The notes under the pieces: model-generated
Database searches by the model: none
Told to the model about the DNA's origin: nothing
What the model saw: the letters and a program-made list of their open reading frames with translations, nothing else
Shown here: piece after piece, positions 10,048 to 37,134 of the stretch
How the letters are laid out: each line of letters starts with the position of its first letter
Position numbering within the stretch: position 1 is the stretch's first letter
Translations under genes and position numbers: made by a program
NCBI GenBank assembly: GCA_964610055.1
Contig: CAZSUC010000002.1
Span: 18,283 to 82,282 of the forward strand
Origin: an uncultured Candidatus Saccharibacteria bacterium
Lineage (GTDB): Bacteria > Patescibacteriota > Andersenbacteria > UBA10190
DNA length: 64,000 nt
Direction: 5' to 3'

Positions 10048-10079
10048 GGTGCTATGTGGGATAAATTGTCAAGGAGGAT

Positions 10080-12142: not shown

Positions 12143-12146
12143 TAAT

Positions 12147-12935: not shown

Positions 12936-12938
12936 GAT

Positions 12939-13691: not shown

Positions 13692-13705
13692 GATAAAATA
13701 ATAAC

Positions 13706-14302: not shown

Positions 14303-14327
14303 AATAATTAAGATGTAAAATAAAATT

Positions 14328-15608: not shown

Positions 15609-15636
15609 ACTTAATCAATAATTATTTGATGTTCAT

Positions 15637-15798
15637 ATGGATAAAGTAAAAGTTGAGAACCATGGTTTTACAGCCTTTTCCTGGTTTGCAGGGTGGTTGT
15701 TTACAATTGGTTTTTTGCAGCTAACTTTTTGGAAAGGTGTGTTAGCGGTTGTTGTGTGGCCGTATTTTATCGGAGTTTTTATTCGAGGATTGATTTAG
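15637..15798 (+). CDS. hypothetical small membrane protein (53 aa)
   Basis: ATG-initiated ORF below track cutoff; two hydrophobic helices; convergent with typA with 4-nt overlap. Confidence 0.3.
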   Translation: MDKVKVENHGFTAFSWFAGWLFTIGFLQLTFWKGVLAVVVWPYFIGVFIRGLI

Positions 15799-17588: not shown

Positions 17589-17620
17589 AGAATTGGATAA
17601 TTATGGCCTAAACTGTAATT

Positions 17621-17649
17621 TTGTCAATTCATAATAAGAATGGAATAAT
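17621..17649 (+). promoter_or_regulatory. candidate promoter TTGTCA-N17-AATAAT
   Basis: hexamers with 17-nt spacing, 6 nt upstream of ATG 17656 (would give a near-leaderless mRNA). Confidence 0.3.
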
Positions 17650-17655
17650 AAAATC

Positions 17656-18822
17656 ATGCGCAATATGAGAATGTGGGTGAGTGGATTGATGGGGATATTA
17701 TTTTTTTTGATACCGATAGTAGCCGGGGCGCAAATAATGGAAGATGATCAGAATGATGTTATAGAGCTACCAGAGACAGAATTGATTGATCCGGCTTTGA
17801 CAACGATCGGGGGAACAGAAAAATATTATCGGGGTGTAGTAGTGCGGGTTTTAGAGGAAAGAGAAGAAGATTTAGGGTTAGCGAATAATAGGTCGCATTT
17901 GCAGAAAGTATTAGTTCAAATTCAAGAGGGAGATCGAGAAGGAGAAGAGGTTACGGTGGAGTATGGAAGTTTATCGGAGGCGCAAAAATTATCAGAAGGA
18001 ATGCGAGTGATTGTTGTTGATCCGGCTAATGTTGAAGTGTTTATTTTCGATCGTTATCGTTTGCCGATGATTGGTTGGATTGCGGCGTTATGCGCGATTT
18101 TGGTTGTCATTTTTGTAGGAAGAAAAGGATTAGGAGCAATGCTGGGATTAGTGATTAGTATTGTCGTGCTGTTAACTTATGTAGTGCCGAGAATTATTGC
18201 GGGAGCAAATCCTTTTGGAGTAAGTGTTATGGCGGCTTTAATAATTTCAGTGGTGTCGATTTATTTTGCGCATGGATTTAATCGAAGGACGAGTGTCGCG
18301 ATTTTGAGTACATTAGTGACGGTGGTGTTGGCGATGGGATTAGCACAGTTATTTGTGCAGTGGGCGCGTTTAACGGGAGCAGGAAGCGAAGAAGCGTTTT
18401 TCTTGCAAACTTCGGCAGCGTCTTTTGTAAACTTACGTGGATTGTTGTTAGGTGGAATTATTATTGGTGTTTTGGGGATTTTGGATGATATTACGACAGC
18501 GCAGGCAGCAGCAGTAGATGAAATTTGGCAAACCGATCCAACGATAGCGAGGCGAGAATTATATCGACGAGGAGCATCAGTCGGACGAGAACACATTACA
18601 TCATTAATTAATACTTTAGCTTTAGCCTATGCAGGGGCTTCTTTTCCTGCGTTATTGCTATTTACAATATATGAACGGCCATGGTGGGTAGTTGCAAACA
18701 CAGAAAATATTGCTGAGGAAATTATTCGAACATTGGTTGGAAGCATAGCTTTGATGGCAGCTGTGCCAATTACAACTTTGTTAGCAGTGTATTTGATTCC
18801 TAAAAGAAGAAGGCAAGCATGA
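17656..18822 (+). CDS. YibE/F-like polytopic membrane protein
   Basis: signal/TM, ~110-aa extracytoplasmic domain, then ~7 TM helices; architecture fits YibE/F family. Confidence 0.5.
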   Translation: MRNMRMWVSGLMGILFFLIPIVAGAQIMEDDQNDVIELPETELIDPALTTIGGTEKYYRGVVVRVLEEREEDLGLANNRSHLQKVLVQIQEGDREGEEVTVEYGSLSEAQKLSEGMRVIVVDPANVEVFIFDRYRLPMIGWIAALCAILVVIFVGRKGLGAMLGLVISIVVLLTYVVPRIIAGANPFGVSVMAALIISVVSIYFAHGFNRRTSVAILSTLVTVVLAMGLAQLFVQWARLTGAGSEEAFFLQTSAASFVNLRGLLLGGIIIGVLGILDDITTAQAAAVDEIWQTDPTIARRELYRRGASVGREHITSLINTLALAYAGASFPALLLFTIYERPWWVVANTENIAEEIIRTLVGSIALMAAVPITTLLAVYLIPKRRRQA

Positions 18823-19478
18823 TTAATTTGAAAAAATCAGTACCATATCGGGATTATTTGTTGTTAGATATGAATATCGTAGTGCGCTCTTTGGTATTAT
18901 CAGATGTCGTGTGGATGTCAGCGATCGGAATGTTAGGGCCAGTGTTTGCTCTGTTTATTGAGGATTATATTGAAGGAGGTAATGCAGCGACTGCAGGCAC
19001 AGCGGCGGCGATATATTTGATTGCGAAGAGTGTGTTTCAGATTCCAGTGGCGGGGTGGATTGATCGGATTCGAGGAGAAAAAGATGACTTTTGGTTGATG
19101 TGGGGTGGATCAATTATTGCGGCTTTAGTACCAATTCTGTACCTATTTATTCATACGGCTGCCCAGCTATATGTGATTCAGTTTTTTTATGGTGTAGCAG
19201 TTGCGCTGACATTTCCGCCATATATGGCGATCTTTACGCGGCATGTTGATCGGCATAAAGAAGGAACGGAATGGGGGGTATATTATACTTTGAGTGATTT
19301 AGTAGGAGCGGCGACGGCAACAATTGGTGGCGTGGTAGCGGTGACAATAGGGTTTAAGCAATTAATATTTGGTGTGGTGGCGGCTAGTATTATTGGGGTC
19401 ATGTTGTTATGGCCGATTCAATATCATTTGCGACAGATACCGAAAAATAAGCGGAGTAAACAGCGGCGGCGCAAGTAG
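18819..19478 (+). CDS. hypothetical 6-TM membrane protein
   Basis: 219 aa, six hydrophobic helices, basic C-terminal tail; start overlaps previous stop. Confidence 0.4.
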   Translation: MINLKKSVPYRDYLLLDMNIVVRSLVLSDVVWMSAIGMLGPVFALFIEDYIEGGNAATAGTAAAIYLIAKSVFQIPVAGWIDRIRGEKDDFWLMWGGSIIAALVPILYLFIHTAAQLYVIQFFYGVAVALTFPPYMAIFTRHVDRHKEGTEWGVYYTLSDLVGAATATIGGVVAVTIGFKQLIFGVVAASIIGVMLLWPIQYHLRQIPKNKRSKQRRRK

Positions 19479-19490
19479 GCGAATTTCAAG

Positions 19491-20549
19491 ATGGATAAAT
19501 TTAACTATCAATATGATTTACCGGAAAACCTGATTGCTAAACATCCGATGTTGCCACGTGACGCGGCTCGATTATTGATGTATGACACGGCAACGGATGT
19601 GGTTAAGGAGGATATTTTTGCTAATTTAGATATTTATTTGCCGGAAGGTGTTTTATTGGTCATGAATGATACGAAAGTGGTGCCAGCAAGAATTGATCTG
19701 TTTAAAGTAACTGGAGGGCGAGTAGAAGCTTTGTTTTTAGTTAATGAATGGAACGGAGCAGGATCAATACCGACTTTGTTAAGTCGTGGGGTGAATACGG
19801 GAGCTAGACTCCAATTAGCTGGAGGCAAAAGTTTTAAGGTGGTATCTCAGAGCGGTAAAATATTTGAGTTGCAGCCAGAGTTTGAAGCGCATGAAATATG
19901 GGAAATTTTAGATAATGACGGCAAGATGCCAATTCCAAAATATATTAAGGGGTCAACTTTGTCGGAAAGTGAATTGAGACAAGAATATCAAAGTGTGTTC
20001 GGAAAACAAGTTGCTTCGGTTGCAGCACCGACGGCTTCTTTGCACTTTACGTCTGAAGTATTGCGTAGGTGCGAAAAACGAAACATACAAATTGCGTTTA
20101 TAACATTGCATGTTGGATTAGGCACGTTTGCACCTCTAACAGCGCAAAATTTAAGAACTAATAAATTGCATCGAGAGCGTTTTCAAATTAGGAGTACGGT
20201 GGCTCAAAGCATTAAACAGTATAAAGATGCTAATAAGCCGGTTGTGGCGGTAGGGACAACTGTAACACGGGCGCTGGAAGCGGCGGCAAGTGAGATACTG
20301 GATTCGAGAAAAAGTAATAACGCTGATTTGGTTGGAATGACAGATATATTTATTCGACCGTCGTATCAGTTCAAAATAGTAGATGCATTAATTACAAATT
20401 TTCATTTACCAGCAAGTTCATTAATGATGATGGTGCAAGCGTTGTTGGCACAAAAGCGAGCGCAACGTAGTTTGGTTGAATTATATGAACTGGCAGTTAA
20501 CAAACAGTATAGATTTTATTCTTTTGGTGACGGAATGCTGATTAAGTAG
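19491..20549 (+). CDS. queA: S-adenosylmethionine:tRNA ribosyltransferase-isomerase
   Basis: N-terminus FNYQYDLPENLIAKHP...RDAARLL matches QueA; ~352 aa. Confidence 0.85.
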   Translation: MDKFNYQYDLPENLIAKHPMLPRDAARLLMYDTATDVVKEDIFANLDIYLPEGVLLVMNDTKVVPARIDLFKVTGGRVEALFLVNEWNGAGSIPTLLSRGVNTGARLQLAGGKSFKVVSQSGKIFELQPEFEAHEIWEILDNDGKMPIPKYIKGSTLSESELRQEYQSVFGKQVASVAAPTASLHFTSEVLRRCEKRNIQIAFITLHVGLGTFAPLTAQNLRTNKLHRERFQIRSTVAQSIKQYKDANKPVVAVGTTVTRALEAAASEILDSRKSNNADLVGMTDIFIRPSYQFKIVDALITNFHLPASSLMMMVQALLAQKRAQRSLVELYELAVNKQYRFYSFGDGMLIK

Positions 20550-20551
20550 AG

Positions 20552-21145
20552 TTAGTCTTTGTGGAAGATATTGCGAAAGAAATTCCGAATGCGACTAAAG
20601 AAACCAACTCGTTCGGTTTGTGGTTCAGGAGAAGGAAGAGCGCTGGAATCAAGAGCAAATGGTTGTCCTTGACCAAAGCTTGGTGACCCATCGGGATTTT
20701 GTCCAAAAGTATTACGATTTTGTTCAGGCATATCGCTTGGCATGGCGTCTTGGCGGATTTCAGTAGCAGTAATAGTGGTGTCAGAGATAGTACCGATAAC
20801 CATAACCATGTCGTCAACGGCTAAATCGGAGATAGTGGCACTAGTGTTGTTTTTGGTAATTTCAGCAGAGCTACCATCAACGGTATATGTTTTTCCAGAA
20901 TCATCATTTGGTCCAAGACCGCGAGTTGTTATAGTTAAGTTGGTTCCGTCAATGGCAGTGATAGTTCCCATAACTCCAGGTGCTTGAGAAGGGCGTTCGC
21001 CTGAAGGAGGATTGTTGCCAGGGGCTTGATCAGGGTTATTCGGTCGAGCGTTATTGCTTTGGGCGTGAGTAGTAGAGACTATTCCTAGGCTTAAGCAACA
21101 AATAGTCGCAAGCGATAAGAGCGAAATTTTGTTTGAAATACACAT
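20552..21145 (-). CDS. secreted protein with DUF5666-like beta-rich domain
   Basis: start moved to ATG 21145 (MCISNK..., signal peptide); motif TYTVDGSSAEITKNNTSATISDLAVDDMVMVIGT resembles the 23807..24244 paralog. Confidence 0.5.
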   Translation of the reverse strand: MCISNKISLLSLATICCLSLGIVSTTHAQSNNARPNNPDQAPGNNPPSGERPSQAPGVMGTITAIDGTNLTITTRGLGPNDDSGKTYTVDGSSAEITKNNTSATISDLAVDDMVMVIGTISDTTITATEIRQDAMPSDMPEQNRNTFGQNPDGSPSFGQGQPFALDSSALPSPEPQTERVGFFSRIRNFFRNIFHKD

Positions 21146-21219
21146 ACTAAAAATTAAAAGTAAGCTGATAGCGTTAGTATACTCTAGAAATAGATGAAGT
21201 ATATTTGAAGATAAACAAC

Positions 21220-21247
21220 AAACCGCCAGGGGCAAGGCTGGCGGTTT
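21220..21247 (-). terminator. hairpin terminator AAACCGCCAG-loop-CTGGCGGTTT
   Basis: 10-bp stem, 8-nt loop, T-rich tail on minus strand; 21 nt downstream of 21268..21834 gene. Confidence 0.5.
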
Positions 21248-21267
21248 GAAGCAGTTTAATATTTATG

Positions 21268-21834
21268 TTATTCGGTCGTAGTTTCAGTATCTTGATCGGT
21301 AGGTGGAGTACGGTCTCCGTTAGGACCACCTGGTCCGTGAGGACCGTTAGATCCTGGCCCGCCAGGACCGCCACCAGGGCCAAACGGCAAGAATTCTTCA
21401 GGAATACCGTTATCCGCTGCCCATTGCTTTAGTTCGTCCATGTGTGCAGTCATAGTTGCTTCGCGTTCTTCATCTGACATGTCTTGAAAAGAATCGCGGG
21501 ACTCTTGGAGTTCTTTTTGTTTCGCAATGATTTTATCGGCTTGTTCTTGAGTTAATGTGCCATCAGAGACAGCTTGGGTGAGACGATCCTCAAAATTTTG
21601 ATGTTGAGGACGTTCTGTGTCTTGAGGACGATGTTCATCAAAAACTTGTTGAACATCGTCAGCGCTGAGGCCAAATTTATCGGCGATTGCAGTAACAAGC
21701 TCAGACATTGGGTTGGGCCGATCGCTTTCTTCTTCATCGGCGAAAGCGGTTTGAGCGGTCTGCAAGCCAATGATGGTCGTGAGCCCGAGAGCAAGCATAG
21801 TGCCGGCTACGAGCATGGATTTGTTTGGCTTCAT
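21268..21834 (-). CDS. secreted protein with LTQEQADKI-type helical repeats and Gly/Pro-rich tail (DUF2680/YckD-like?)
   Basis: signal peptide, acidic helical region, C-terminal GPGGGPGGPGSNGPHGPGGPNG low-complexity tail. Confidence 0.5.
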   Translation of the reverse strand: MKPNKSMLVAGTMLALGLTTIIGLQTAQTAFADEEESDRPNPMSELVTAIADKFGLSADDVQQVFDEHRPQDTERPQHQNFEDRLTQAVSDGTLTQEQADKIIAKQKELQESRDSFQDMSDEEREATMTAHMDELKQWAADNGIPEEFLPFGPGGGPGGPGSNGPHGPGGPNGDRTPPTDQDTETTTE

Positions 21835-22087
21835 TAATGTCTAAGTTAAGAATGAGGTAGGAGGTAAAGGTGGCGCAACGTGTGGCCGGGAGGATAGCCT
21901 CGTTAGATTTGAAGGTGACGAGGCAAAATCGCAAAGCGTTATCTTTTCCGGGACGAAGCGTCTTTACCGAAGTGTGATATGGAGGACCGCAATACCGTAT
22001 TGGGCTAGCTACCGATACGCGTATATGCCGTCTATGATCACAATATTAGTATGCTAAATTACCAATGAAGTTAGAGTGAAGGCAACG

Positions 22088-23137
22088 TTATGATGTAGAA
22101 GAAGCAAGAGGCAAAGAGATTGTAACCGTAGTGCCTTGATTAAGGCGACTGGTAATGTGTACTGAGCCGTTATATGACTGAATGATTGATTGGACGATAG
22201 ACAAGCCGAGGCCGCTGCCACCAGCTGCGCGTGATCGACTTTGATCAGCTCGATAAAAGCGATCAAATAAATGAGGAATGACAGTGTCGGATATACCAAT
22301 ACCGGTATCAGTGATGGTAATTAGAGCGTTATGATTTTGTTGAATGAGATTAACAACAACCTGTCCATTCGGTTTGTTATAGTCGATTCCATTTTTGATC
22401 ACGTTGGTTAGGGCTTGTAAAAGATGTTCGTAGTGCCCTGTCACGGAGATTGGGTCCGGAGCGAGAGAGGTGATTAGTTTAATCTGGCGTTTATTAGCAT
22501 AGGTTGTAAGACGCGAGATGGCGGTAGTAATAGCATGAGTTAAGTCTACGGTTGTGGCAGGGGGTGAAGCGGGATTGTCGTTGTCGAGACGAGAAATTAA
22601 GAGGAGATCATTAACGATTTTACCCATCCGTTTTACTTCTTCCAGATGACTAGTTAATTCAGTTTTAAGCTCTTGATTAAGATGAGGACGCGATAATTCA
22701 TTCTCAAGATCAAGTTGTAAGACAGCTAAAGGAGTACGTAATTCATGAGAAGCGTCACTTAAAAAAGTACGTTGACGGTCATATGCGGCTTGAATAGGAC
22801 GTAAGGTGATGCCGGCGAGCCAATAGCTTAAACCAACGGCACCGATAAAGAGAATACCGTTAGTCATCCAGAGAGAAAAACTAAGTTCTTGTCTGACTTG
22901 GTTACGAGCCAAAGTGTCAATTTGTAAATTAGGTGCAGGAGGGAAGAGAGGGCGATTGTGTAGATTTGATTCAAGTCGACTAGAGAAAAAGGAGTGAGTT
23001 GAGAAGCTAGAAATGGCTAAGATGATTAACAGGAGAATAGCGTATAAAACCGTTAAACGAATACGGGCAGCGTGAAATTGATTGCTTTTATGAGAGCCGG
23101 TAACCTTTGCCGCGAATTGTTTTAATACGTCTTGCAT
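22088..23137 (-). CDS. sensor histidine kinase (HisKA + HATPase_c)
   Basis: two N-terminal TM helices, H-box SHELRTPLAV, N/G boxes (NGIDYN, DTGIGI, GGSGLGLSIV); start overlaps RR gene by 50 nt (alternative GTG start possible). Confidence 0.85.
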   Translation of the reverse strand: MQDVLKQFAAKVTGSHKSNQFHAARIRLTVLYAILLLIILAISSFSTHSFFSSRLESNLHNRPLFPPAPNLQIDTLARNQVRQELSFSLWMTNGILFIGAVGLSYWLAGITLRPIQAAYDRQRTFLSDASHELRTPLAVLQLDLENELSRPHLNQELKTELTSHLEEVKRMGKIVNDLLLISRLDNDNPASPPATTVDLTHAITTAISRLTTYANKRQIKLITSLAPDPISVTGHYEHLLQALTNVIKNGIDYNKPNGQVVVNLIQQNHNALITITDTGIGISDTVIPHLFDRFYRADQSRSRAAGGSGLGLSIVQSIIQSYNGSVHITSRLNQGTTVTISLPLASSTS

Positions 23138-23750
23138 ATTGATTAGGTAATTTTTTACGTAAGTTTTTTAGATGAACGTCGACGACGTTGCTTAATGAAT
23201 CATAGAAACTATCCCAAACATGACTTAAGATATCATCTCGGGTTACAACTGTGTTTTGATTGCGTAATAGGTATTCAAGTAAAGCATATTCACGAGCGGT
23301 TAGGTGAATTTCTTTGTTAGCGATGGTAACACGTTGAGCTTGGGTGTCGAGAGTAAGTCCATCAAGAGTCATGATGTCAGGGACAAGTTGATTAGGGCGA
23401 CGAAGAAGACTGCGGATACGAGCGAGTAATTCTTCAAAGGAAAAGGGTTTTGTAAGGTAATCGTCACCACCATGATCTAAGCCAGTGACTTTGTCTTCGA
23501 TCGCATCTTTGGCAGTTAAGAAGAGGATCGGAGTGGTGATTTGGTCGTGGCGTAGATTTTGGCACACGGTTAATCCGTCTCGAAGAGGCATCATAATATC
23601 GAGGATAATAAGATCATAGGGATTACGACGGGCTAATGTTTCACCTGCCACGCCTTCAAAAGCAAAATCGACCGCATATCCTTGGTTTTTTAAGGCTTTA
23701 ACTAGCCCTTTATTTAATTTTGGCTCGTCTTCGACGACTAAAATACGCAT
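23088..23750 (-). CDS. OmpR-family response regulator
   Basis: receiver domain (ILVVEDE..., DLIILDIMMP) plus winged-helix C-terminus ending RGKGYRL. Confidence 0.9.
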   Translation of the reverse strand: MRILVVEDEPKLNKGLVKALKNQGYAVDFAFEGVAGETLARRNPYDLIILDIMMPLRDGLTVCQNLRHDQITTPILFLTAKDAIEDKVTGLDHGGDDYLTKPFSFEELLARIRSLLRRPNQLVPDIMTLDGLTLDTQAQRVTIANKEIHLTAREYALLEYLLRNQNTVVTRDDILSHVWDSFYDSLSNVVDVHLKNLRKKLPNQYARRIKTIRGKGYRLS

Positions 23751-23806
23751 ATGTTCATGATACTACCTGGGGCGGGATGAAGAATAGCTGAAGAGGGTGG
23801 GTATAG

Positions 23807-24244
23807 CTAATTAGCGGGTCCGTTACCTCCAAAGGGCATGTCCGAATCTGTCGGTATAATTTGAACAGAGGTGGCTGTAGTGCTGCCATCAGCATTTTTT
23901 TCGCCGACTACCATAATTTGACTGCCATCCGTTAGATCACTCAGAGCGCCGTTGGCAGTTTTTTGGTAAGTTGTGCTGCTATTAACGAGAATGATTTGGG
24001 AATTGTTGTTTTGAGTAGTTACTATAATACGACCATCAGCGATTGATTGGATAGAACCGGAAATACGGTTTTCGCTGGTGTCGGCTGGAGCGCCACTACG
24101 AGATGATCCGCTGGGCATGTTACCACCCATTGGTCCGCCATTAGGTTGACCAGAACCAATTAAGGAGCGGCTAAAATATCCGCCGAGACCACCAATGACC
24201 AAACAGGCAATGGCAGTAAGAATGAGACTATTTTTAGGAGTCAT
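23807..24244 (-). CDS. membrane-anchored secreted protein with DUF5666-like domain
   Basis: N-terminal TM/signal, Gly-rich linker, motif RIIVTTQNNNSQIILVNSSTTYQKTANGALSDLTDGSQIMVVG paralogous to 20552..21145. Confidence 0.5.
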   Translation of the reverse strand: MTPKNSLILTAIACLVIGGLGGYFSRSLIGSGQPNGGPMGGNMPSGSSRSGAPADTSENRISGSIQSIADGRIIVTTQNNNSQIILVNSSTTYQKTANGALSDLTDGSQIMVVGEKNADGSTTATSVQIIPTDSDMPFGGNGPAN

Positions 24245-24265
24245 ATAATAAGTAATTAAGATTAA

Positions 24266-25486
24266 TTATTCGTAACGTAAGGCGACGATTGGTTGTAACT
24301 TAGCAGCACGTTGAGCTGGATAATAGCCAAAGACGATTCCAATGGCACTACTAACCGTGAAGGCAAGGAGAGGCCCGTAGAAGGAAATAGTGATGGGCAT
24401 GCCAAGTAGATTGCTGCCGATAATGGAAATGATAATACCAAGGATAATGCCGATAAGGCCACCGCTCACTGTCAAGACAATAGATTCAACTAAAAACTGG
24501 AGGAGAATGTCTTTGTGCTTGGCGCCGATAGCCTTGCGAATACCAATTTCTCGGGTGCGTTCAGTAATAGTAACGAGCATAATATTCATAATTCCGATAC
24601 CGCCAACGAGAAGTGAAATAGCGGCGATGCCAGAAAGTAAGTTAGTAAATGTGCTGGTAGTTTCACTGACAGTTTCAATGAGATCGGCTTGAGAACGAAT
24701 ACTGAAATCAGCATCATCGACATTAGTAAAACCATGGCGACGAAGTAAAAACCAGCCAACTTCATCCATAGTTTGATCCATGACGTCGGCGCTAGTTGCC
24801 GTGACAGAAATACTACTAACGTAATCGCTGCCAACCAAGAGTTTTTGAGCAGTAGTAATAGGAACGTAAACGCTATCGTCGGAGCTACCGAAACCACCGC
24901 CACCTTTTTCTTCAGTTAAACCAACAACTCGAAAAAGGATGCTGTTGATTTTAATGTTTTGACCAATTGGATTATCGTTTTCAAACAGACTTTCGGCGAC
25001 ATTGGGGCCCAAGACAGCGACGCGGGCAAGATCTTCTATATTTTGTTCGGTGATAAAAGAACCGGATGAAATGGTGATATTGGAAGTGGTGACATGAGAT
25101 GGCATAACGCCAGATATTTGGGCGTTAGTATTGTTTCTTCCGGCTGTGATTTGGAAATTACTGGAAACAGTAGCGCTAACGGCGGAAACGGTGGTTAAGG
25201 ATGTATTAGAAGATAAGGCTTCAACATCATCCATAGTAAGACTATCGGCTGATCCCATGGCACCACGAACACCGCTTTGACTAGAAGCCCCAGGTGAAAT
25301 TGTAAGTAAATTTGATCCAATCGATGATATCTGGTCTGTGACTGAAGTCTGCGCGCTTTGACCAAGAGAGATTAAGCTGACAACAGCGGCAATACCAATA
25401 ACAATGCCTAAAATAGCTAGGCTGGTACGTAGCATGTTAGAAAGTAAGGCATTAAAAGCAGTGGCAGTTGTTTCGCGAATATCCAT
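24266..25486 (-). CDS. ABC transporter permease, FtsX/MacB type
   Basis: TM1, large extracytoplasmic domain, then 3 TM helices with FtsX-like C-terminus; C-terminal IVALRYE. Confidence 0.8.
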   Translation of the reverse strand: MDIRETTATAFNALLSNMLRTSLAILGIVIGIAAVVSLISLGQSAQTSVTDQISSIGSNLLTISPGASSQSGVRGAMGSADSLTMDDVEALSSNTSLTTVSAVSATVSSNFQITAGRNNTNAQISGVMPSHVTTSNITISSGSFITEQNIEDLARVAVLGPNVAESLFENDNPIGQNIKINSILFRVVGLTEEKGGGGFGSSDDSVYVPITTAQKLLVGSDYVSSISVTATSADVMDQTMDEVGWFLLRRHGFTNVDDADFSIRSQADLIETVSETTSTFTNLLSGIAAISLLVGGIGIMNIMLVTITERTREIGIRKAIGAKHKDILLQFLVESIVLTVSGGLIGIILGIIISIIGSNLLGMPITISFYGPLLAFTVSSAIGIVFGYYPAQRAAKLQPIVALRYE

Positions 25487-25491
25487 AGATA

Positions 25492-26193
25492 TTATTGAGG
25501 GAAGGGGTGATTAGGGCTAATTGGTATTTGTTCTTTGTCTTCGTAGATAAGGCCGTCACGAAGAGAAATAACACGTTTAGCGTGGGCAGCGATGTCATGT
25601 TCATGTGTAACCATAACTATAGTGTGTCCTTCTTGGTTTAATTGCTGGAAGAGATGCATGATCTCATCTCCTGTTTTAGTGTCGAGGTTACCAGTTGGTT
25701 CATCGGCGAGAATAATACTAGGATCGGTGATTAAGGCGCGAGCGATAGCGACGCGTTGTTTTTGTCCACCAGAGATTTCATTTGGCATTTTTTGAGCTTC
25801 CTTGGTTAAACCAACTAGATCAAGAAGTTTTTGAGCTTTTGCGTTACGATCGTGATCGTTACAGTAGGCGAGTGGCAAGGCAACGTTTTTAAGCAAGCTC
25901 ATGCGAGCTAAGAGATTGAATGCTTGAAAAACGAAACCAATTTTGCGATTACGGATATCAGAGAGACGATCGTCAGTAAGATTTTCAACAGCCTCGCCGT
26001 CTAATTCGTAGGTACCGCTAGTCGGGATATCAAGGGCGCCTAAGATGTGCATCAAGGTTGATTTACCGGATCCGGACGGTCCCATGATAGCGACAAATTC
26101 CTTCGCTTTTATATTAATGGTAACGCCTTTTAGGGCCTGAGTCTTAGTTTCGCCGGTATCGTATGTCTTTGTAATGTTGTTGATCTTGATCAT
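25492..26193 (-). CDS. ABC transporter ATP-binding protein (MacB/LolD-type NBD)
   Basis: GPSGSGKST Walker A, LSGGQKQRVAIARAL signature, [11 protein letters not shown] Walker B. Confidence 0.9.
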   Translation of the reverse strand: MIKINNITKTYDTGETKTQALKGVTINIKAKEFVAIMGPSGSGKSTLMHILGALDIPTSGTYELDGEAVENLTDDRLSDIRNRKIGFVFQAFNLLARMSLLKNVALPLAYCNDHDRNAKAQKLLDLVGLTKEAQKMPNEISGGQKQRVAIARALITDPSIILADEPTGNLDTKTGDEIMHLFQQLNQEGHTIVMVTHEHDIAAHAKRVISLRDGLIYEDKEQIPISPNHPFPQ

Positions 26194-26201
26194 GGCGAAA
26201 T

Positions 26202-27644
26202 TTAGAAGCCTCCGCCGGGAGGACCGCCACCTCCCATGACGCTGCCCATACCGCTCATGCTTCCGCTACCAGAACGTTGGCTGCTTTCGTCGGACTCGCT
26301 GTCACTAAATGATCCTGTAATGTTACTACCACTAATAACGACTTCGTCTCCTTCGCTAAGACCGTCAGTAATTTCAATATTGAGGTCGTCGCTAGCGCCG
26401 ACAGTTACTTCGACTGTGGTAGCAACACCATCGCGCATAACAGTGACACTGGCTTGGTCGTCTTGGTATTGCACGGCATTAGTCGGGATTAAGAGAACGT
26501 CATTTTTTTGAACAGTTATAATGCTGGCGTCAACAGACATGCCTGGTCGAATAGTTTCATCTAATTGGTCAAATGTAATTTCGACATTATAAGTTGTAAC
26601 GCCGCTAGTAGTTGTACTGAGAGTATCGATATTGGAAATCACGCCAGTCGCAGTTTTATCAGATAAGGCGTCAAAAGTAAGAGTGGCGGGTTGGCCGAGC
26701 GCAATACTGGAAATATCAACTTCACTGATAGATACTTGGGCGCGTAAACTGGTCATGTCTACAATAGAGAAGAGTGTACTAGAAGAGCTGGAATCATCGC
26801 TATCGCCGTCAGAGCTGTCGTTTTTACCGACAACACTGCCTTCTACTAAGGACATATTCATAACTGTTCCGGCGACGGGGGCGGTGACAGTTTCGCTAAT
26901 CATGGCTTGGTAGCTGAGTCGAGTAGCAGTCAGACTAGCTTGGGCTGCGGTTAGCGACTGCTGAGAAATTTTAGTTGTAGTGGCGGCTGATTCAGCATTA
27001 AGTTTTGCTTGCGCTAAAGAAGCTTCCGCGGTTTTAAGGCTTTCTTGTCCGGATAGTTTGGCGGTCTTGAGTTCAATTTCAGCGCTTTCAGTTGTACGTT
27101 CAGCGGAGACTGTTTCTAGGTCGGTGTCGGCAGATTCTTGTGTCATGGCAGCGCTAATAACGCCCTTATCGGCATCAATAATACTTTTGTTAACAGCAAT
27201 TTTAGCTTGATCGTAGGCTAATTGACTGGCTTCAAGGTTAGTTTGTTTGATTTGCTCGTTTTTTTGACTTTCAGTTAATGTTTGTTCAGCGGAAGTAACG
27301 GCTTTTTGCGCGGATAGGAGAGAGGCATAAGCTTGCGCTAATTCTTCATCGGTTGATAGTGATTTTAGAGCAACAAGAGTTTGATCAGCGGTAACGGTTT
27401 CGCCATTTTCGACATATATTTTTTCGATCCGACTTGCACCGCTAGTAGTGACATCAGAAGATATTTTAGCGATAACAGAACCGCTGCCGCTAACTGACTC
27501 GACAATTGTGCCGCGCTCGACTGTTGTAGTGCTGGTTGTGACTACCGTTTCAGTGGTGCGGAAAAAGAACCACCAAACTGCTACTCCAGCGAGCAGGAGA
27601 ATAATAGTGATAATGAACCACGGTTGACGATAAGGGATTTTCAT
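26202..27644 (-). CDS. HlyD-family periplasmic adaptor (MacA-like) with Gly/Ser-rich C-terminal tail
   Basis: N-terminal TM anchor, coiled-coil, beta-barrel; C-terminal low-complexity SGSGSMSGMGSVMGGGGPPGGGF. Confidence 0.75.
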   Translation of the reverse strand: MKIPYRQPWFIITIILLLAGVAVWWFFFRTTETVVTTSTTTVERGTIVESVSGSGSVIAKISSDVTTSGASRIEKIYVENGETVTADQTLVALKSLSTDEELAQAYASLLSAQKAVTSAEQTLTESQKNEQIKQTNLEASQLAYDQAKIAVNKSIIDADKGVISAAMTQESADTDLETVSAERTTESAEIELKTAKLSGQESLKTAEASLAQAKLNAESAATTTKISQQSLTAAQASLTATRLSYQAMISETVTAPVAGTVMNMSLVEGSVVGKNDSSDGDSDDSSSSSTLFSIVDMTSLRAQVSISEVDISSIALGQPATLTFDALSDKTATGVISNIDTLSTTTSGVTTYNVEITFDQLDETIRPGMSVDASIITVQKNDVLLIPTNAVQYQDDQASVTVMRDGVATTVEVTVGASDDLNIEITDGLSEGDEVVISGSNITGSFSDSESDESSQRSGSGSMSGMGSVMGGGGPPGGGF

Positions 27645-27742
27645 TATGTAACCGATTAATGATCAGAACGTTAGCAAGTAAATAACTGGCACGCATAGGT
27701 GTATAGGGCGAGCCAATTACGGTTTGAAGTGTACGCGAGGGA

Positions 27743-27764
27743 CTATGAAATTTCTATGAAGACA
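27743..27764. promoter_or_regulatory. tandem direct repeat CTATGAA-N4-CTATGAA (11-bp period), Pho-box-like
   Basis: two identical heptamers exactly 11 bp apart; 12 nt upstream of a TATAGT -10 candidate (27773..27778) for the 27799 gene. Confidence 0.35.
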
Positions 27765-27798
27765 TTATACTCTATAGTAACTATTAGATTAATAATGC

Positions 27799-29244
27799 GT
27801 GTTAACGACCAAAGTAAATGAAATAGACTTGGGCGGATCCGATGCACCGGTGAAGTTGTTTTTGATTCACGGATATACCGGGAGTCCAACTGACTTTAAT
27901 CAGTTGCCAGATTTTTTACATGACCAGTATGGAGTTAGGGTGCGTGTACCTTTACTGCCGGGGCATGGTACTGAAGTGAATGATTTAGATAACTATAACT
28001 ACGAGGATTTTATTCAAAAGGTTGAAAAGGAGTTTGCTCAAGAACGTCAAAAAGGAGGAAAAATATTGGTTGGCGGAGTGTCTTTTGGAGCGCTAGTGGC
28101 TTTACGTTTAGCAGCGAAGTATCCGGTTGATGGTGTAGTCAATATTAGTATTCCGTTTAGTTTAAAAATGCCTTTTGGAATGCCCGGCATAAAATGGTTG
28201 CGTCTGATAAAGAAATACTGGAGAAAAAAAGTGAAATCAGATGAAATAGGGCTGCGGCGCGATTCCTTCCATTACGATTATATGCATGTAAATGGTCTGG
28301 GAATTGTAAAGCAAGCTAAGCGTGAGGTGAAAGATAATTTACGTGGAGTTACGTGTCCGATTATAACAATTCATTCAAATCACGATCCGATTGGAAGTGT
28401 GCGAGGAGTGCATAAATTACAGAAGAAAATGGCTAAAGATCATCAGGTTGTGATGTATGATAATCCTAATCACAATATTTTTTTTAGTAATAAGCATACC
28501 GATGCTTACCAAAAGATTGGTGATTTTGTGCAAGACACAATAAAATCACGATCAGTGAAAACAAAGCACAAAGTTGCGGCAATTGTACCAGCTTATAACG
28601 AAGCGGATCGCATTAAGCCAGTATTGGAAACTTTGATTCGGACTGACTTAATTAATGAGGTGATGGTAGTGGATGATGGATCAACGGATAAAACAAGTGA
28701 AATTGCGCGGGCTGTGCCAGGAGTAAAAGTGATTACTAATAAGGAGAATAAGGGGAAGGCAGCCTCTTTGCAGCTGGCAATTGATCAAACGAAAGCAGAC
28801 GTTTTATTTTTTTGTGACGCAGACTTAGAAGAATTAACACCAGAGATCGTAACGGAGATTATAAACCCAGTAGTGTTAGAGCAACGAGATATGTTTATTG
28901 GGGTGCGCAATAATGTTACGCAAAAAGCGTTGACTTTATTTGCGCTGAATTCAGGTGAGAGAGCGTTGCGACGAGAAGTATGGGAAGAGATGCCGGATAT
29001 TTTTAAATATCGTTATCGATTAGAAGTAGGTTTAAACGCGACTGCTCGATGGCGTAAGAATGGTTATGGATGGAAAAAGTTTCCATACTATCAGACATTT
29101 AAAGAACGTAAATATGGGTTTGTCAAAGGCACTATTTTGCGCTGGTGGATGAATTTAGATGTGTTGTATGCGTATGCAGTGGTTGTGGGAAGGCGCGTTT
29201 TGGGGCGACGGGGATTGGTGGCGGAGAAAAAGACTGGCATTTAA
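27799..29244 (+). CDS. bifunctional alpha/beta-hydrolase (esterase-like) and family-2 glycosyltransferase fusion protein
   Basis: GTG start; N-terminal HGYTGSP ... GVSFGA (GxSxG) hydrolase fold; C-terminal AAIVPAYNEADRI ... VVDDGSTDKT ... CDADL GT2 (DPM1-like) motifs. Confidence 0.7.
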   Translation: MLTTKVNEIDLGGSDAPVKLFLIHGYTGSPTDFNQLPDFLHDQYGVRVRVPLLPGHGTEVNDLDNYNYEDFIQKVEKEFAQERQKGGKILVGGVSFGALVALRLAAKYPVDGVVNISIPFSLKMPFGMPGIKWLRLIKKYWRKKVKSDEIGLRRDSFHYDYMHVNGLGIVKQAKREVKDNLRGVTCPIITIHSNHDPIGSVRGVHKLQKKMAKDHQVVMYDNPNHNIFFSNKHTDAYQKIGDFVQDTIKSRSVKTKHKVAAIVPAYNEADRIKPVLETLIRTDLINEVMVVDDGSTDKTSEIARAVPGVKVITNKENKGKAASLQLAIDQTKADVLFFCDADLEELTPEIVTEIINPVVLEQRDMFIGVRNNVTQKALTLFALNSGERALRREVWEEMPDIFKYRYRLEVGLNATARWRKNGYGWKKFPYYQTFKERKYGFVKGTILRWWMNLDVLYAYAVVVGRRVLGRRGLVAEKKTGI

Positions 29245-29269
29245 AGAGGGGCTCGTTATAATAGGTATC

Positions 29270-29662
29270 ATGAAAGGATACATAGCAAACTTAGAACAAG
29301 AAACTTTAGAAAATAACGACTATCGTCGCGTATTGTATACGGGACGGTATAGTCAATTAGTAGTCATGAGTTTAGAGCCGGGTCAGGAGATAGGGAACGA
29401 GCAACATGGCCTTGATCAATTTATTCGAATTGAACAAGGAAAAGCGAAGGTTGTTTTAGGCAATGGAGAATTGGAGCAAGAGGTGCAGGATGATTGGGCA
29501 TTTATTATTCCAGCGGGAACTTGGCATAACGTGATCAATACGGGAGAAACTCAATTAAAGTTATACACTGTTTATTCTCCCCCTGAACATCGACATGACG
29601 TGGTGCAACCAACGAAAGCAGATGAAAAGGAAGAACATTTTGACGGTCAGACAACTGAATAA
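29270..29662 (+). CDS. cupin-domain protein
   Basis: start moved to ATG 29270 (after previous stop); motif G..EQHGLDQFIRIEQG...IIPAGTWHNVIN typical of small cupins. Confidence 0.6.
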   Translation: MKGYIANLEQETLENNDYRRVLYTGRYSQLVVMSLEPGQEIGNEQHGLDQFIRIEQGKAKVVLGNGELEQEVQDDWAFIIPAGTWHNVINTGETQLKLYTVYSPPEHRHDVVQPTKADEKEEHFDGQTTE

Positions 29663-30061
29663 TCAGTGGTGTCCACAGCGGCAGCCTTTGGGAGTGATAT
29701 AGCCGTCGAAGTATTCGGATCCGTAATGATAAGTTAGTTCAGTGCCAGCGGGGATGTCGGTAATTGCGTAAACGAAAAGACGGCGACCGTCTTGTTCGAC
29801 TTCACAGTTAGGTTGGCATGAGTGATTGAGGTAACGAGCGATGTTTTGACGGTGGCTACCATCAATGGTGCGATGGTCGTCTAAAGCAAATAAATATTTT
29901 CCGCCGGCTTTTTCAGCGGCAGCGTTGGATAAAATTGGTCCATAGTATTCAATAACAAAATCATCTTTTTTGATAGGGCTTTGCGAGAAAAGGCCTAAGC
30001 CGGATAGTCCGCGTTTAACTACGAGCTGGTGTTTGGATGGCCGAGGGTAACGATAAGGCAT
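29663..30061 (-). CDS. SET-domain protein (putative protein-lysine methyltransferase)
   Basis: RYLNHSCQPNC and ELTYHYG SET signatures plus C-terminal CRCGHH post-SET-like Cys cluster; 132 aa. Confidence 0.7.
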   Translation of the reverse strand: MPYRYPRPSKHQLVVKRGLSGLGLFSQSPIKKDDFVIEYYGPILSNAAAEKAGGKYLFALDDHRTIDGSHRQNIARYLNHSCQPNCEVEQDGRRLFVYAITDIPAGTELTYHYGSEYFDGYITPKGCRCGHH

Positions 30062-30095
30062 AGTTTAAGATAGTAAATTAAAGTATGATTATAAT

Positions 30096-30575
30096 ATGAA
30101 AACGGAAAAGAGCCAGGGGTCGATAACTCTGATGGTGTTAGTCATGTTGTTGGTGTTTGGATTAATTTTTGGAACGATAGCGGCTTTGATTAGTCGCCAG
30201 GCCAACCAGATTTCTGATCAGGAGGAAAATGAGCAGGTCGCTGGGTTGGCTGATGCTGGGGTTCAGTATGCATTCTGGTTGCTAAAAATATCCACTCAAG
30301 GAGGCGGTATAACACCGGAAAGTTTGTGTACTAATCCTCCATCTGGGGCAAGTGAGCATATGATTTTAGATGAACAAGGGGTGGAGCTAGGATATTTTGA
30401 TTTAGATTTTGTGTCGTGTAGTGATGAATATGTGCAAGTTAATTCCTGGGGGTTTGATGAGAGTAAGAGTGATATCTGTCAATTGATTGTGGCAGAGTTT
30501 GAGAAAACTCAAGAAGGTTCATTTGTGAGAACAGGCTGGAATGCGAAATCAGGAGTTGACTGTCCGAATAACTAA
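30096..30575 (+). CDS. type IV pilus minor pilin-like / PilX N-terminal-like protein
   Basis: N-terminus KSQGSITLMVLVMLLVFGLIFGTIAAL resembles PilX_N hydrophobic segment; remainder unassigned. Confidence 0.4.
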   Translation: MKTEKSQGSITLMVLVMLLVFGLIFGTIAALISRQANQISDQEENEQVAGLADAGVQYAFWLLKISTQGGGITPESLCTNPPSGASEHMILDEQGVELGYFDLDFVSCSDEYVQVNSWGFDESKSDICQLIVAEFEKTQEGSFVRTGWNAKSGVDCPNN

Positions 30576-30578
30576 AAT

Positions 30579-31826
30579 TTATTCGTAGCGTAAGGCTTCG
30601 ATTGGATCTTTACGGGCAGCAGCGCGAGCCGGGTAAATGCCAAAAACTAAGCCGACGAGAGTAGCGGTGCCAACTCCGAGTAAAATGGCGTTAAGTGGGA
30701 AACTGGTTGGCCAATCGAGTCCAAATTGAGTACGAACGACATAAGCCACTAACCAAGAAATGCCAAGAGCAAGAGAAGTGCCTAGAATGCCACCGGAAGC
30801 GGTCAGGATGGTAGCTTCTAAGAGGAATTGGCGCATGATGTCGTTGTTTGTAGCACCAACAGTTTTGCGAAGACCAATTTCACGAGTACGTTCCGTAACT
30901 GAAACCAGCATAATATTCATAATACCGACGCCGGCAACTAACAGTGAAATAGCGGCAATTGAGACTAAGAAAATAGTTAGGATATTTGTGATAGTACTGA
31001 CGCGCGTAGCAATATCAGCTTGAGTCATGACTGAAAAATCGTCTTTAGTGGTATCAGTAATATTATGTTCTTCGCGCAAAGTTAAGCGCACGTCTTGGGC
31101 AACCTGTTCGGCATTAGCATCATCATTGGTTTGAATTAAAACTTCGTTGAAATAATCAATTCCCATGATATCTTTTTGGGCAGTGGAATAGGGAATTAAA
31201 GCAAGTTTATCAACATTTAAAAATGATACTTGGCCAGTTTTAGGAAAAGTACCGACAACTTTTAAACGAGTGTTTTTAATTGTGACAAATTGTCCAATTG
31301 CGTCAATGTTACCGAAAAGATCTTGTTTGACTTGATAACCAAGGACAACTACTTTAGATCGTTGTTTGATGTCGTCTTGAGTGAATAAAAAACCTTGGTC
31401 GGGATATAGATCGAGCATAGTAGCTAAAGCTTCAGCATCGTACCCGATTGTTAGAGGACGGGCGATGGCATCGCGATAGGACATGCTGCCGGAAACAATA
31501 ACTTCAGGAATAATGTTTTGAACGTTCGGTACGTTAGCGGGGCGACTAAGGGCATCAATATCGGAGCTGGTGATGGAGTCGGAGAAAAGAGCGCTAGTAA
31601 AATCGGATGGGCCTTCGGCTTGACGTCCGGGTTCAATCATAACGACATTACCACCAAAGGCGCGAACTTCATTGAGAATCACTTCTCGTGAACTTTGGCC
31701 TAAGGCGACGACTAAGACGATGGCGAGGACACCAATCACAATGCCGAGAATAGTGAGAAGAGAGCGAACTAAATTATCGCGAAGGGCGCGGAAAGAAATT
31801 GTAATTGTGTCGCGCAGCTGAATCAT
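30579..31826 (-). CDS. ABC transporter permease, FtsX/MacB type (second copy)
   Basis: same architecture as 24266..25486; C-terminal PIEALRYE. Confidence 0.8.
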   Translation of the reverse strand: MIQLRDTITISFRALRDNLVRSLLTILGIVIGVLAIVLVVALGQSSREVILNEVRAFGGNVVMIEPGRQAEGPSDFTSALFSDSITSSDIDALSRPANVPNVQNIIPEVIVSGSMSYRDAIARPLTIGYDAEALATMLDLYPDQGFLFTQDDIKQRSKVVVLGYQVKQDLFGNIDAIGQFVTIKNTRLKVVGTFPKTGQVSFLNVDKLALIPYSTAQKDIMGIDYFNEVLIQTNDDANAEQVAQDVRLTLREEHNITDTTKDDFSVMTQADIATRVSTITNILTIFLVSIAAISLLVAGVGIMNIMLVSVTERTREIGLRKTVGATNNDIMRQFLLEATILTASGGILGTSLALGISWLVAYVVRTQFGLDWPTSFPLNAILLGVGTATLVGLVFGIYPARAAARKDPIEALRYE

Positions 31827-32537
31827 TTATTTGTGATAAGTGTTATTAGGATTGAATTTATTAGGAGAATCACTAGCGATACGTCCATCGCGCATTTCAA
31901 TAATGCGTTGAGCGTATTGAGCGGTGGGGGTTTCATGAGTAATTAGAATAATGGTGTGACCTTGCTGGTGAAGACGTGCAATTGTATCCATAACAATAGC
32001 GCCGGTGCGTGAGTCGAGATTTCCCGTTGGTTCATCGGCTAAGATTAGGCGAGGTTCATTAATAAGAGCACGGGCAATGGCCGCTCGTTGCTTTTCGCCA
32101 CCGGAGAGTTGGGTGGGGCGATGATGGAGTCGATGAGACATTTCAACTTGAGCTAGGGCGGCTTGAGCGCGACTAACATATTCGCGTGAACGAACAGAAG
32201 AATATTGCAAAGGTAAAATAACGTTTTCTAAAACGGTTGAATGAGGAAGTAAATGAAATGATTGGAAAACGAAGCCAATGCGTTGGTTACGAATTAGCGC
32301 TAGTTCTTGGTCGGTTAAGGTAGAGGTGTCTTGATTGTCGAACAAGTATTGTCCAGAAGTGGGTCGACTGAGGAGGCCGAGAATTTGAAGAAGAGTGGAT
32401 TTACCGGAGCCACTAGCACCCATGATAGAAACAAATTCACCGGCTTCAATGTGAAAAGTGGCATGGTCAAGAGCGGTAACAGCAGCTTCATCCATGCCGT
32501 AAACCTTGCGCAGGGCAGAGCATTGAATGAGGGGCAT
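31827..32537 (-). CDS. ABC transporter ATP-binding protein (second copy)
   Basis: [35 protein letters not shown]. Confidence 0.9.
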
Positions 32538-32545
32538 AGACTGAA

Positions 32546-33823: not shown

Positions 33824-33918
33824 ATGTATAAAGTACCTTAAGAAGGCTGAATTACGCTAGGGTAAGTGAGAGTTATTTTTTTGACTAAATAAATAAAACA
33901 TGTGTTAATAAGAATATT

Positions 33919-34629: not shown

Positions 34630-34639
34630 GGGCGAATAA

Positions 34640-35632: not shown

Positions 35633-35655
35633 TTTTTCCCTGCTATAGTAGAGCT

Positions 35656-37107: not shown

Positions 37108-37134
37108 ACGTAATTATTAAAAATATTTAAAACT

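Follow-up and report, generated by a model that had tools for sequence, protein, structure and literature searches.

A conserved MacB-type pump cassette with an anchored DUF5666 protein and a candidate regulator box in the candidate phyla radiation

Transporters of the MacB type, which belong to the ATP-binding cassette (ABC) proteins, are believed to do their work from the membrane's outer face (PMC5985334). The YknWXYZ pump of Bacillus contains an enigmatic fourth membrane protein, YknW, and is part of the core regulon of sigma-W, a sigma factor of the extracytoplasmic function (ECF) class (PMC5985334, PMC3498285). SpMacAB of Streptococcus pneumoniae is induced by, and protective against, antimicrobial peptides, and macAB is under the control of PhoPQ in Salmonella and E. 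coli (PMC5985334). Here, a locus related to these systems is analyzed in a 64,000-nt stretch of DNA (contig CAZSUC010000002.1, hereafter the window) from an uncultured Candidatus Saccharibacteria bacterium placed by GTDB among the Andersenbacteria, a candidate phyla radiation (CPR) lineage. The locus occupies positions 20552..27798, counted over the whole window, and its eight genes all lie on the minus strand. They encode an adaptor-dependent MacB-type pump, a small membrane-anchored protein of the DUF5666 family (DUF5666-B), a two-component system (TCS) and two further secreted proteins. The reading that we favor, with somewhat better than even confidence, is that of a stress-inducible envelope pump of the Gram-positive MacAB/YknXYZ type, in which DUF5666-B is a fourth component and which in this lineage is controlled by the TCS through a short repeated DNA box.

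A check of the open reading frames (ORFs) together with Pfam searches placed all eight genes where the original prediction had put them, and its gene identities and gene order were right. The adaptor, a MacA/YknX-like membrane fusion protein (26202..27644, 480 aa; Pfam HlyD_D23 and HlyD_3), has a transmembrane (TM) segment near the N terminus (residues 5–31) and a low-complexity Ser/Gly tail. It scores 132 bits against the NCBIfam model RND_mfp (cut-off 94.9), matches the MacA structure 5nik_D (E 4.6e-17) and carries precomputed assignments to the YknX β-barrel (Beta-barrel_YknX) and YknX_C families; both adaptors of the window carry YknX-type families. The ATPase (25492..26193; ABC_tran, 114.6 bits) is a separate polypeptide of the MacB/LolD/FtsE clade, whose best NCBIfam match is the nucleotide-binding domain of MacB (E 1.2e-72), followed by LolD, DarD and FtsE (E 1e-72 to 1e-63). 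The permease (24266..25486, 406 aa; MacB_PCD, 157 bits, and FtsX, 69.5 bits) shows in hydropathy analysis TM1, a periplasmic core domain (PCD) of ∼230 aa and three more TM segments. It aligns over its full length with the MacB structure 5gko (E 1.1e-64) and also with the S. pneumoniae Spr0695 structure 5xu1_M (E 8.6e-46) and the extracellular domain of YknZ (5f9q, E 3.9e-08). A four-TM permease with its PCD between TM1 and TM2, paired with a MacB-clade ATPase, is the signature of the MacB-type (type VII) ABC fold. A gene for a TolC-like outer-membrane factor was found neither in the locus nor next to it, and the envelope of CPR cells is generally taken to be monoderm; the pump is thus not the tripartite exporter that had been proposed.

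The permease gene is followed by that of DUF5666-B (23807..24244, 145 aa), and the gaps within the adaptor-ATPase-permease-DUF5666-B unit are 8, 5 and 21 nt. With 32.8 bits DUF5666-B exceeds the gathering cut-off of Pfam DUF5666 (PF18914, 27 bits), as does the second DUF5666 protein of the locus. Related loci were retrieved with DUF5666-B alone, by exact look-ups and by a scan of one genome per species, whose matches were mapped with home-made profiles. After duplicates had been merged (L007 = L014, L013 = L016) and three further matches at the ends of short contigs left out as uninformative, 20 distinct loci, the window included, were available. In all 20, the DUF5666-B gene lies directly downstream of the adaptor-ATPase-permease genes on the same strand. 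The loci come from Andersen-, Yanofsky-, Nealson-, Moran-, Buchanan-, Kaiser- and Woesebacteria, Paceibacterota, Saccharibacteria and unnamed CPR bacteria, and the nearest named relatives of the window's DUF5666-B are Candidatus Andersenbacteria. Identical copies of this protein are also encoded on metagenome contigs as long as 165 kb. Judged by this comparison, the gene arrangement is not due to chance, because it recurs in related genomes at ∼50% protein identity and in differing flanking contexts.

The regulatory genes beside this four-gene cassette vary. A TCS lies downstream in three loci, all from Andersenbacteria and including the window, and upstream in three others (L017, L019 and L025). 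Eight loci have, upstream, an ECF sigma factor with an anti-sigma-like multi-TM protein of ∼135 aa, usually accompanied by a second DUF5666 subfamily; five have no adjacent regulator, and one (L011) could not be scored, its contig starting within the adaptor gene. Conserved synteny, whose absence in relatives would have refuted the original prediction, was found: with the pump it is complete for the anchored single-domain subfamily, and with a TCS it extends to 6 of the 20 loci, compared with 8 for the ECF module. On this evidence the invariant core is the pump plus the anchored DUF5666 protein, and the sensing module is exchangeable. The variation in regulators points to a self-contained, separately regulated cassette.

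The second subfamily, termed A-type, was detected in seven of the eight ECF-type loci and consists of a TM anchor, a conserved juxtamembrane W/F-G-E-N-Y-H-R-N-F-x-G-P motif and a DUF5666 domain. Its gene is situated between those of the anti-sigma-like multi-TM protein and the adaptor (L009, 4125..4643; L010, 1725..2291; L012, 808..1314; L013, 1751..2254; L023, 3429..3995; L026, 3483..4016; L028, 3312..3806). An ORF of 240 aa in L021 (3412..4134) weakly resembles the anti-sigma-like protein and the end of the A-type subfamily; a fusion of the two is possible but not established. Inspection by eye of the DNA upstream of the sigma genes in the ECF-type loci gave no obvious shared ECF-type promoter. 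The contigs of L017 and L028 are titled as metagenome-assembled genomes of Pseudomonadales and Gammaproteobacteria; the cassette, box and leaderless regulator gene look CPR-like, and these labels may be binning or naming errors.

DUF5666-B is made up of a TM anchor (N-in) that carries a GxxxG motif, a linker rich in Gly and Pro, and a single DUF5666 domain (residues ∼60–130) for which an oligonucleotide/oligosaccharide-binding (OB) fold is predicted. In the AlphaFold2 model, residues 60–130 form a six-stranded barrel with a predicted local distance difference test score (pLDDT) of ∼90. A Foldseek search of the PDB returned generic OB folds and nothing else (E ∼3e-3 to 2e-2), among them IF1, cold-shock domains, the OB rings of proteasomal ATPases and, at rank 15, the CusF-like C-terminal domain of SilB (2l55). 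Invariant in alignments are Thr91, Asp103, Gly114, Asp119-Gly-Ser and Thr123-Ala. Across the CPR, the members of this subfamily are ∼130–190 aa long and have the same layout, with the TM segment at the N terminus, then a linker rich in Gly, Gln and Pro, a single DUF5666 domain and, last, a short tail. The N-terminal TM segment is found in 118 of 119 members, Lys or Arg precedes it in 115 and a GxxxG motif lies within it in 89. A literature search found no reported function for DUF5666 and no description of the cassette in Patescibacteria.

The evidence that ties the TCS to the pump in this lineage is a direct repeat, TTCA-N7-TTCAT, with a phasing of 11 bp, which occurs upstream of four units in the locus. 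The exact pattern has four matches in the 64 kb, compared with 1.25 expected over both strands; all four lie in intergenic DNA of the locus on the coding (minus) strand, and the window holds no other exact copy. Box P1 (TTCATAGAAATTTCAT, 27745..27760) is located 11 nt 5′ of a −10-like TACACT (27733..27728), which is followed by an 84-nt leader and the adaptor gene. P2 (TTCAGCTATTCTTCAT, 23777..23792) lies between the DUF5666-B and regulator genes, 11 nt 5′ of TAGTAT (23765..23760). P3 (TTCACTCTAACTTCAT, 22065..22080) comes right after the kinase stop codon, 11 nt 5′ of CATACT (22053..22048), and precedes a leader of ∼210 nt. P4 (TTCAAATATACTTCAT, 21194..21209) is found 12 nt 5′ of TATACT (21181..21176), and the gene for the second DUF5666 protein (DUF5666-2) starts ∼30 nt further on. 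The distance from the box to the −10-like hexamer is thus fixed at 11–12 nt at the four sites. Just before P4, between the gene for the other secreted protein (188 aa) and that of DUF5666-2, the minus strand has a hairpin resembling an intrinsic terminator (21219..21248; 11 pairs, 7 of them G-C, then TTGTTTAT). Because of the four box-plus-(−10) units and the hairpin before the last gene, the locus is best described from its sequence not as the one operon originally claimed but as a small regulon of four units: adaptor-ATPase-permease-DUF5666-B, regulator-kinase, the 188-aa gene and DUF5666-2.

The box is also present at equivalent positions, eight sites in all, in five independent loci of related genomes (L004, L007/L014, L017, L019 and L025). 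In L004 it precedes the adaptor gene and the small secreted gene homologous to the 188-aa gene, and in L007/L014 it precedes these two and the regulator gene as well; in the more distant loci in which the TCS comes first (L017, L019 TTCAGCTATTTTTCAGCTAT and L025), TTCA-N7-TTCA stands before the regulator gene. The spacing from box to −10-like hexamer is 10–11 nt in every case. The box was not found in L009, where an ECF sigma module stands in for the TCS, nor in L032, where a homologue of the 188-aa protein is followed by a TCS; its absence from L032 suggests that the TCS there is of a different family. In the window, boxes with one mismatch are not enriched (21 found, 33 expected), and neither an exact nor a one-mismatch box precedes the second set of pump genes. 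Direct repeats about one helical turn apart in the −35 region are what a candidate OmpR/PhoB-type site should present, and since OmpR/PhoB regulators typically use tandem-repeat sites, we infer that the regulator of the locus binds the box. The common box and the conserved synteny bear out the functional link between pump, TCS and small secreted proteins that the original prediction had drawn.

The start codons stand in a particular relation to these predicted promoters. The ATG of the window's regulator gene lies 9 nt after the predicted −10 hexamer (23750..23765), and in every lineage measured the regulator start codon lies 6–10 nt after it. Such short distances occur in the window at 23750..23765, in L007 at 8552, in L019 at 2362, in L025 at 2601 and in L004 at 4724. 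The adaptor genes of L004 and L007 likewise begin 6–10 nt after the predicted −10, whereas that of the window has the 84-nt leader instead. With start codons so close to the predicted −10, leaderless or near-leaderless mRNAs are suggested to be common in these CPR loci. The gap between the kinase and 188-aa genes is, as noted earlier, exactly 253 nt (22087..21835). The predicted leader of the 188-aa gene within it (21835..22045, minus strand, ∼210 nt) has a folding energy of −54.8 kcal/mol (z = −3.2 versus shuffled sequence). In L004 and L007, the start codon of the small gene follows the predicted −10 by merely 32–36 nt, so the long leader appears specific to the window's lineage. Neither the 253-nt gap nor the rest of the locus gave an Rfam match, at E ≤ 1, to a riboswitch or other known RNA.

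The regulator (23088..23750, 220 aa) belongs to the OmpR/PhoB family (Response_reg, 100.8 bits; Trans_reg_C, 90.5 bits), and the gene of its kinase (22088..23137, 349 aa; HisKA and HATPase_c) overlaps the regulator gene by 50 nt. The kinase is a minimal sensor: TM1 (∼28–51) and TM2 (∼86–110) enclose an outer loop of ∼34 aa, and the H-box His131 follows TM2 by ∼20 residues. No HAMP or PAS domain is present, and there is no room for one. Five orthologues from the other TCS-type cassettes are built alike: each has two TM segments joined by a short loop, of 30–45 aa in these kinases, and lacks a HAMP domain. Classical intramembrane-sensing kinases have loops under 25 aa.

The two remaining proteins of the proposed regulon are secreted. 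The first (21268..21834, 188 aa) is an acidic, all-helical protein with a signal peptide; its gene may start at 21816, which would give 182 aa as in the public gene calls. AlphaFold2 predicts five helices with pLDDT above 85, followed by a Gly/Pro-rich tail. It reached no Pfam or NCBIfam family above threshold, a profile of 33 members found no sequence match in the PDB, and Foldseek gave no match at E < 3. A motif, LTQEQ, prompted comparison with CpxP and Spy, and a sub-threshold DUF2680 match surrounds it (LTQEQADKI); an identity with CpxP/Spy/ZraP or DUF2680 was rejected, since the DUF2680 score is 13.2 bits (cut-off 25; E 0.1) and neither the PDB profile search nor Foldseek supported it. 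The protein has 68 homologues, which make up an unnamed family in the CPR; members occur after an ECF sigma pair (L031), before another TCS with a MacB-type pair nearby (L032) and alone (L033). These contexts fit a member of a stress regulon and not a pump subunit. DUF5666-2 (20552..21145, 197 aa; Pfam DUF5666, 30.0 bits) has a signal peptide of the cleavable type (…THA/QS), then a linker rich in Pro and Asn, a single DUF5666 domain and, at the C terminus, an amphipathic basic helix (RVGFFSRIRNFFRNIFHKD). Its start is most likely at 21145 rather than at a TTG at 21235, because the longer ORF (21235..20552) crosses the terminator-like hairpin and the public gene calls use 21145. DUF5666-2 is 28% identical to DUF5666-B and is its own cluster representative at 50% identity (P0034). 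No counterpart was found in the other Andersenbacteria loci (L004, L007 and L014), which makes it, as far as these genomes indicate, specific to the window's lineage.

From these observations the following mechanism can be proposed, its steps given in order of falling confidence. The phosphorylated regulator would bind TTCA-N7-TTCAT at the −35 position, overlapping the −35 region, and activate the four units, its own regulator-kinase unit among them (autoregulation). The pump likely protects the envelope by ridding the membrane's outer face and the wall zone of membrane-active peptides or toxins; the proposal draws on the analogy with YknWXYZ, SpMacAB and AS-48EFGH and on the mechanotransmission model of MacB (PMC5985334). 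A module for sensing and detoxifying antimicrobial peptides or toxins, one of the functions suggested at the outset, is the most plausible one. DUF5666-B would be a subunit or close partner of the pump that serves in substrate capture, assembly or signaling and is kept beside the permease by its GxxxG TM helix. The kinase, being almost without a sensor domain, probably reads its signal indirectly, through the pump or DUF5666-B, as in transporter-coupled sensing.

Several points weigh against this reading. The box pattern was defined from intergenic DNA read in front of three genes of the window, P2 having gone unnoticed beforehand, which leaves P2 and the sites in other species as its sole independent tests. 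A generic promoter scan gave no enrichment, and the −10 hexamers are consensus guesses for a group in which promoter rules are not established. A profile search for the DUF5666 domain returned 5,810 clusters at E ≤ 1e-3, mostly multi-repeat proteins, and the association with the pump is that of the anchored single-domain subfamily, the one whose gene contexts were examined. No fusion of DUF5666 to a permease or adaptor was found among ten long family members, which contain DUF5666 repeats alone or together with DUF4382 or CarboxypepD_reg domains. The five cassettes that lack an adjacent regulator also count here. Taken with the post hoc choice of the pattern and the frequency of short repeats in AT-rich intergenic DNA, they could mean that the genes are coincidental neighbors, the TCS controlling itself or unrelated genes and the box being a feature of chance or promoter composition. 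That the box is kept at orthologous positions in five independent loci despite diverged intergenic sequence, at a fixed distance from a −10-like hexamer, with no further exact copies in 64 kb and none in the ECF-type locus L009, makes such a coincidence very improbable.

Three other explanations concern what the pump does. Adjacency and the shared box could indicate that it exports or releases DUF5666-B, the 188-aa protein and DUF5666-2, and small proteins already located beyond the cytoplasmic membrane, the enterotoxin STII and dispersin for example, can be moved by MacB-family pumps (PMC5985334). All three proteins, however, have Sec-type N termini, either a signal peptide or an N-terminal anchor of their own, and for this reason, and given the presumed action of MacB-type transporters from outside, the idea of dedicated exporters for the secreted proteins does not hold up well. 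The anchor of DUF5666-B looks uncleaved, is conserved in 118 of 119 relatives and would keep the protein in the membrane. Most cassettes lack the 188-aa family and DUF5666-2, pump and DUF5666-B being the constant part, and 188-aa homologues also occur with no pump nearby (L031, L033). Cargo export is thus unlikely. A little less so, but still doubtful, is an FtsEX-like mechanotransmission, in which ATP-driven movement of the periplasmic domain switches an extracytoplasmic partner without expelling a substrate, DUF5666-B being the coupled partner or an adaptor, for example to a cell-wall hydrolase. The MacB-fold proteins FtsEX and LolCDE do act on protein partners (PMC5985334), and DUF5666-B is an obligate neighbor anchored beside the permease. 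The sole hint of a hydrolase link is an Amidase_3 gene right after DUF5666-B in L009 (8441..9202), overlapping the DUF5666 stop codon, and a Peptidase_M10 gene right after DUF5666-B in L013 (6598..7581), which amounts to 2 of the 20 loci. A full-length MacA/YknX-like adaptor is always present, adaptors being the hallmark of conduit pumps and absent from FtsEX and LolCDE, and the permease resembles MacB (E 6.6e-77) far more than the FtsX models (∼1e-5 to 1e-7). Metal efflux in the manner of CusRS/CusCFBA, with the OB-fold DUF5666 protein as a CusF-like metallochaperone feeding the adaptor, has very little to commend it. The best NCBIfam model for the regulator is the heavy-metal regulator CztR/SilR/CopR and the kinase matches CztS/SilS/CopS, but both scores are below the family cut-offs (226 versus 279 bits and 166 versus 293 bits, respectively), as is the regulator's match to RppA. 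L004 has multicopper oxidase and CsoR-like genes ∼3 kb upstream, yet copper genes are not conserved as neighbors. The SilB domain among the fold matches of DUF5666-B is one generic OB fold among others at E ∼1e-2, and in alignments of the DUF5666-B domain neither His nor Met nor Cys is conserved, whereas residues of Thr, Asp, Gly, Ser and Ala are invariant; a CusF-like identity was rejected on these grounds. MacB-type pumps are not known to export metals.

Returning to the stress-inducible pump with DUF5666-B as its fourth component, a bolder extension can be put forward, which we regard as rather unlikely: that the two DUF5666 subfamilies form the signal relay of a CPR-wide, transporter-coupled system of envelope sensing. 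The B-type protein, anchored beside the permease, would then signal the activity of the pump or its substrate load to the regulator present in the given lineage, directly to the sensor-less kinase in TCS loci and, via the A-type protein, to the anti-sigma-like protein in ECF loci. If true, this would be a new answer, through an accessory protein, to the problem of flux sensing, which Bce systems solve by direct contact between transporter and kinase, and would provide a first function for the large orphan family DUF5666.

The surroundings of the locus contain further transport genes. A second adaptor-ATPase-permease set (30579..33823, minus strand) and, beside it, a gene for a membrane-anchored tyrosine phosphatase (33919..34629) are both present as predicted. 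The two pump sets share 26% (adaptor), 47% (ATPase) and 37% (permease) identity and are therefore old paralogues; since the second set has neither a DUF5666 gene nor a regulator box, it was left out of the proposed regulon. Next to it, a 159-aa ORF (30096..30575, plus strand) has a pilin-like hydrophobic N terminus (KSQGSITLMVLVMLLVFG) and no Pfam match above threshold. SET-domain genes lie between the two pump sets (29663..30061, minus strand) and, in L022 (1846..2274), directly upstream of the adaptor gene of a Kaiserbacteria cassette; cupin genes recur beside the cassette in the window (29159..29662), L011 and L012. Either recurrence may be coincidence. A third adaptor-dependent efflux system spans 5217..10700. 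Its minus-strand genes encode an AcrB-like transporter of the resistance-nodulation-division (RND) superfamily (8789..5217; ACR_tran, E 8e-169) and an adaptor-like protein (9981..8554), and a TetR regulator gene diverges from them on the plus strand (10080..10700); an ABC-2 exporter pair comes next (12075..13691). Three adaptor-type pumps in 30 kb are many for a small CPR genome without an outer membrane. The plus-strand GC skew is positive across 1..64000 (0.10–0.40 in 2-kb windows), without a change of sign, and is weakest at 24–28 kb, over the minus-strand locus.

A large part of bacterial diversity falls within the CPR (Patescibacteria), whose members have very small genomes and live mostly attached to other microbes, and genes that are kept everywhere under such conditions likely matter at that interface. 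The present analysis defines a four-gene MacB cassette across at least nine CPR lineages, gives a subfamily of the orphan domain DUF5666 its first consistent genomic context and provides evidence that the ECF sigma module and the TCS are interchangeable regulators of the cassette. For an uncultured organism, it also offers a candidate regulator box and a regulon of four units that are concrete and testable. Saccharibacteria, in which the four-gene cassette is likewise present (L015), are open to natural transformation and Tn-seq (PMC10633639).

Compared with described systems, the locus does not reveal a new kind of machine. The strongest sequence homology is to MacAB-TolC of Gram-negative bacteria (MacB, E 1e-64; MacA, E 5e-17), which is also under TCS control; here, the host is monoderm, the locus has no TolC-like gene, the ATPase is not fused to the permease, and the TCS is adjacent and dedicated. 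BceRS-BceAB of Firmicutes, which senses and detoxifies peptide antibiotics, similarly combines an FtsX-fold ABC transporter with an OmpR-type regulator and a two-TM kinase almost without a sensor domain, and sensing that depends on the transporter is the natural working model. BceB, however, has 10 TM segments with its large extracellular domain between TM7 and TM8 and works without an adaptor, in contrast to the four-TM MacB-type permease with one PCD and the adaptor found here; the locus also has a DUF5666 partner, and its kinase loop is longer than the limit given above. Permease topology and the presence of an adaptor rule out membership of the Bce type, to which the arrangement had been likened, but in sensing the locus may work like a Bce module. 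CusRS-CusCFBA, too, groups the genes of a TCS and of a pump that needs an adaptor with that of a small OB-fold protein outside the cytoplasm. CusCFBA is of the RND type and includes an outer-membrane factor, and the metal ligands of CusF are Met and His, whereas DUF5666-B is membrane anchored and lacks conserved metal ligands.

The nearest parallels come from pumps of Gram-positive bacteria. Spr0693-0694-0695 (SpMacAB) has the same adaptor-ATPase-permease order and architecture, but neither a fourth gene resembling DUF5666 nor a dedicated TCS next to it has been described (PMC5985334). The immunity pump AS-48EFGH of Enterococcus faecalis is MacB-like, with an adaptor and an extra small membrane protein, AS-48E (PMC5985334); AS-48E has four TM segments and its operon is part of a bacteriocin cluster, whereas no bacteriocin genes adjoin the CPR cassette. 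YknWXYZ of B. subtilis and B. amyloliquefaciens, which protects against the SDP toxin, is likewise a monoderm MacAB-like pump with an N-terminal-TM adaptor, a separate ATPase and a four-TM permease with an extracytoplasmic domain. It too has an extra membrane protein, co-transcribed in Bacillus, and is under envelope-stress control, through sigma-W there and, in most of the cassette's CPR relatives, through an ECF sigma module. The differences are that YknW is a multi-pass Yip1-type protein encoded first, whereas here a single-pass OB-fold DUF5666 protein is encoded after the permease and the locus has no Yip1-like gene, and that the window has an OmpR-type TCS in place of the ECF sigma factor and two extra secreted proteins in the proposed regulon. 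After YknW and AS-48E, DUF5666-B is thus a third case of an extra membrane protein recruited to a monoderm MacAB-like pump, which strengthens the case that such fourth subunits matter functionally. By gene content and architecture, the closest analogue of the locus is YknWXYZ, with DUF5666 in the place of YknW.

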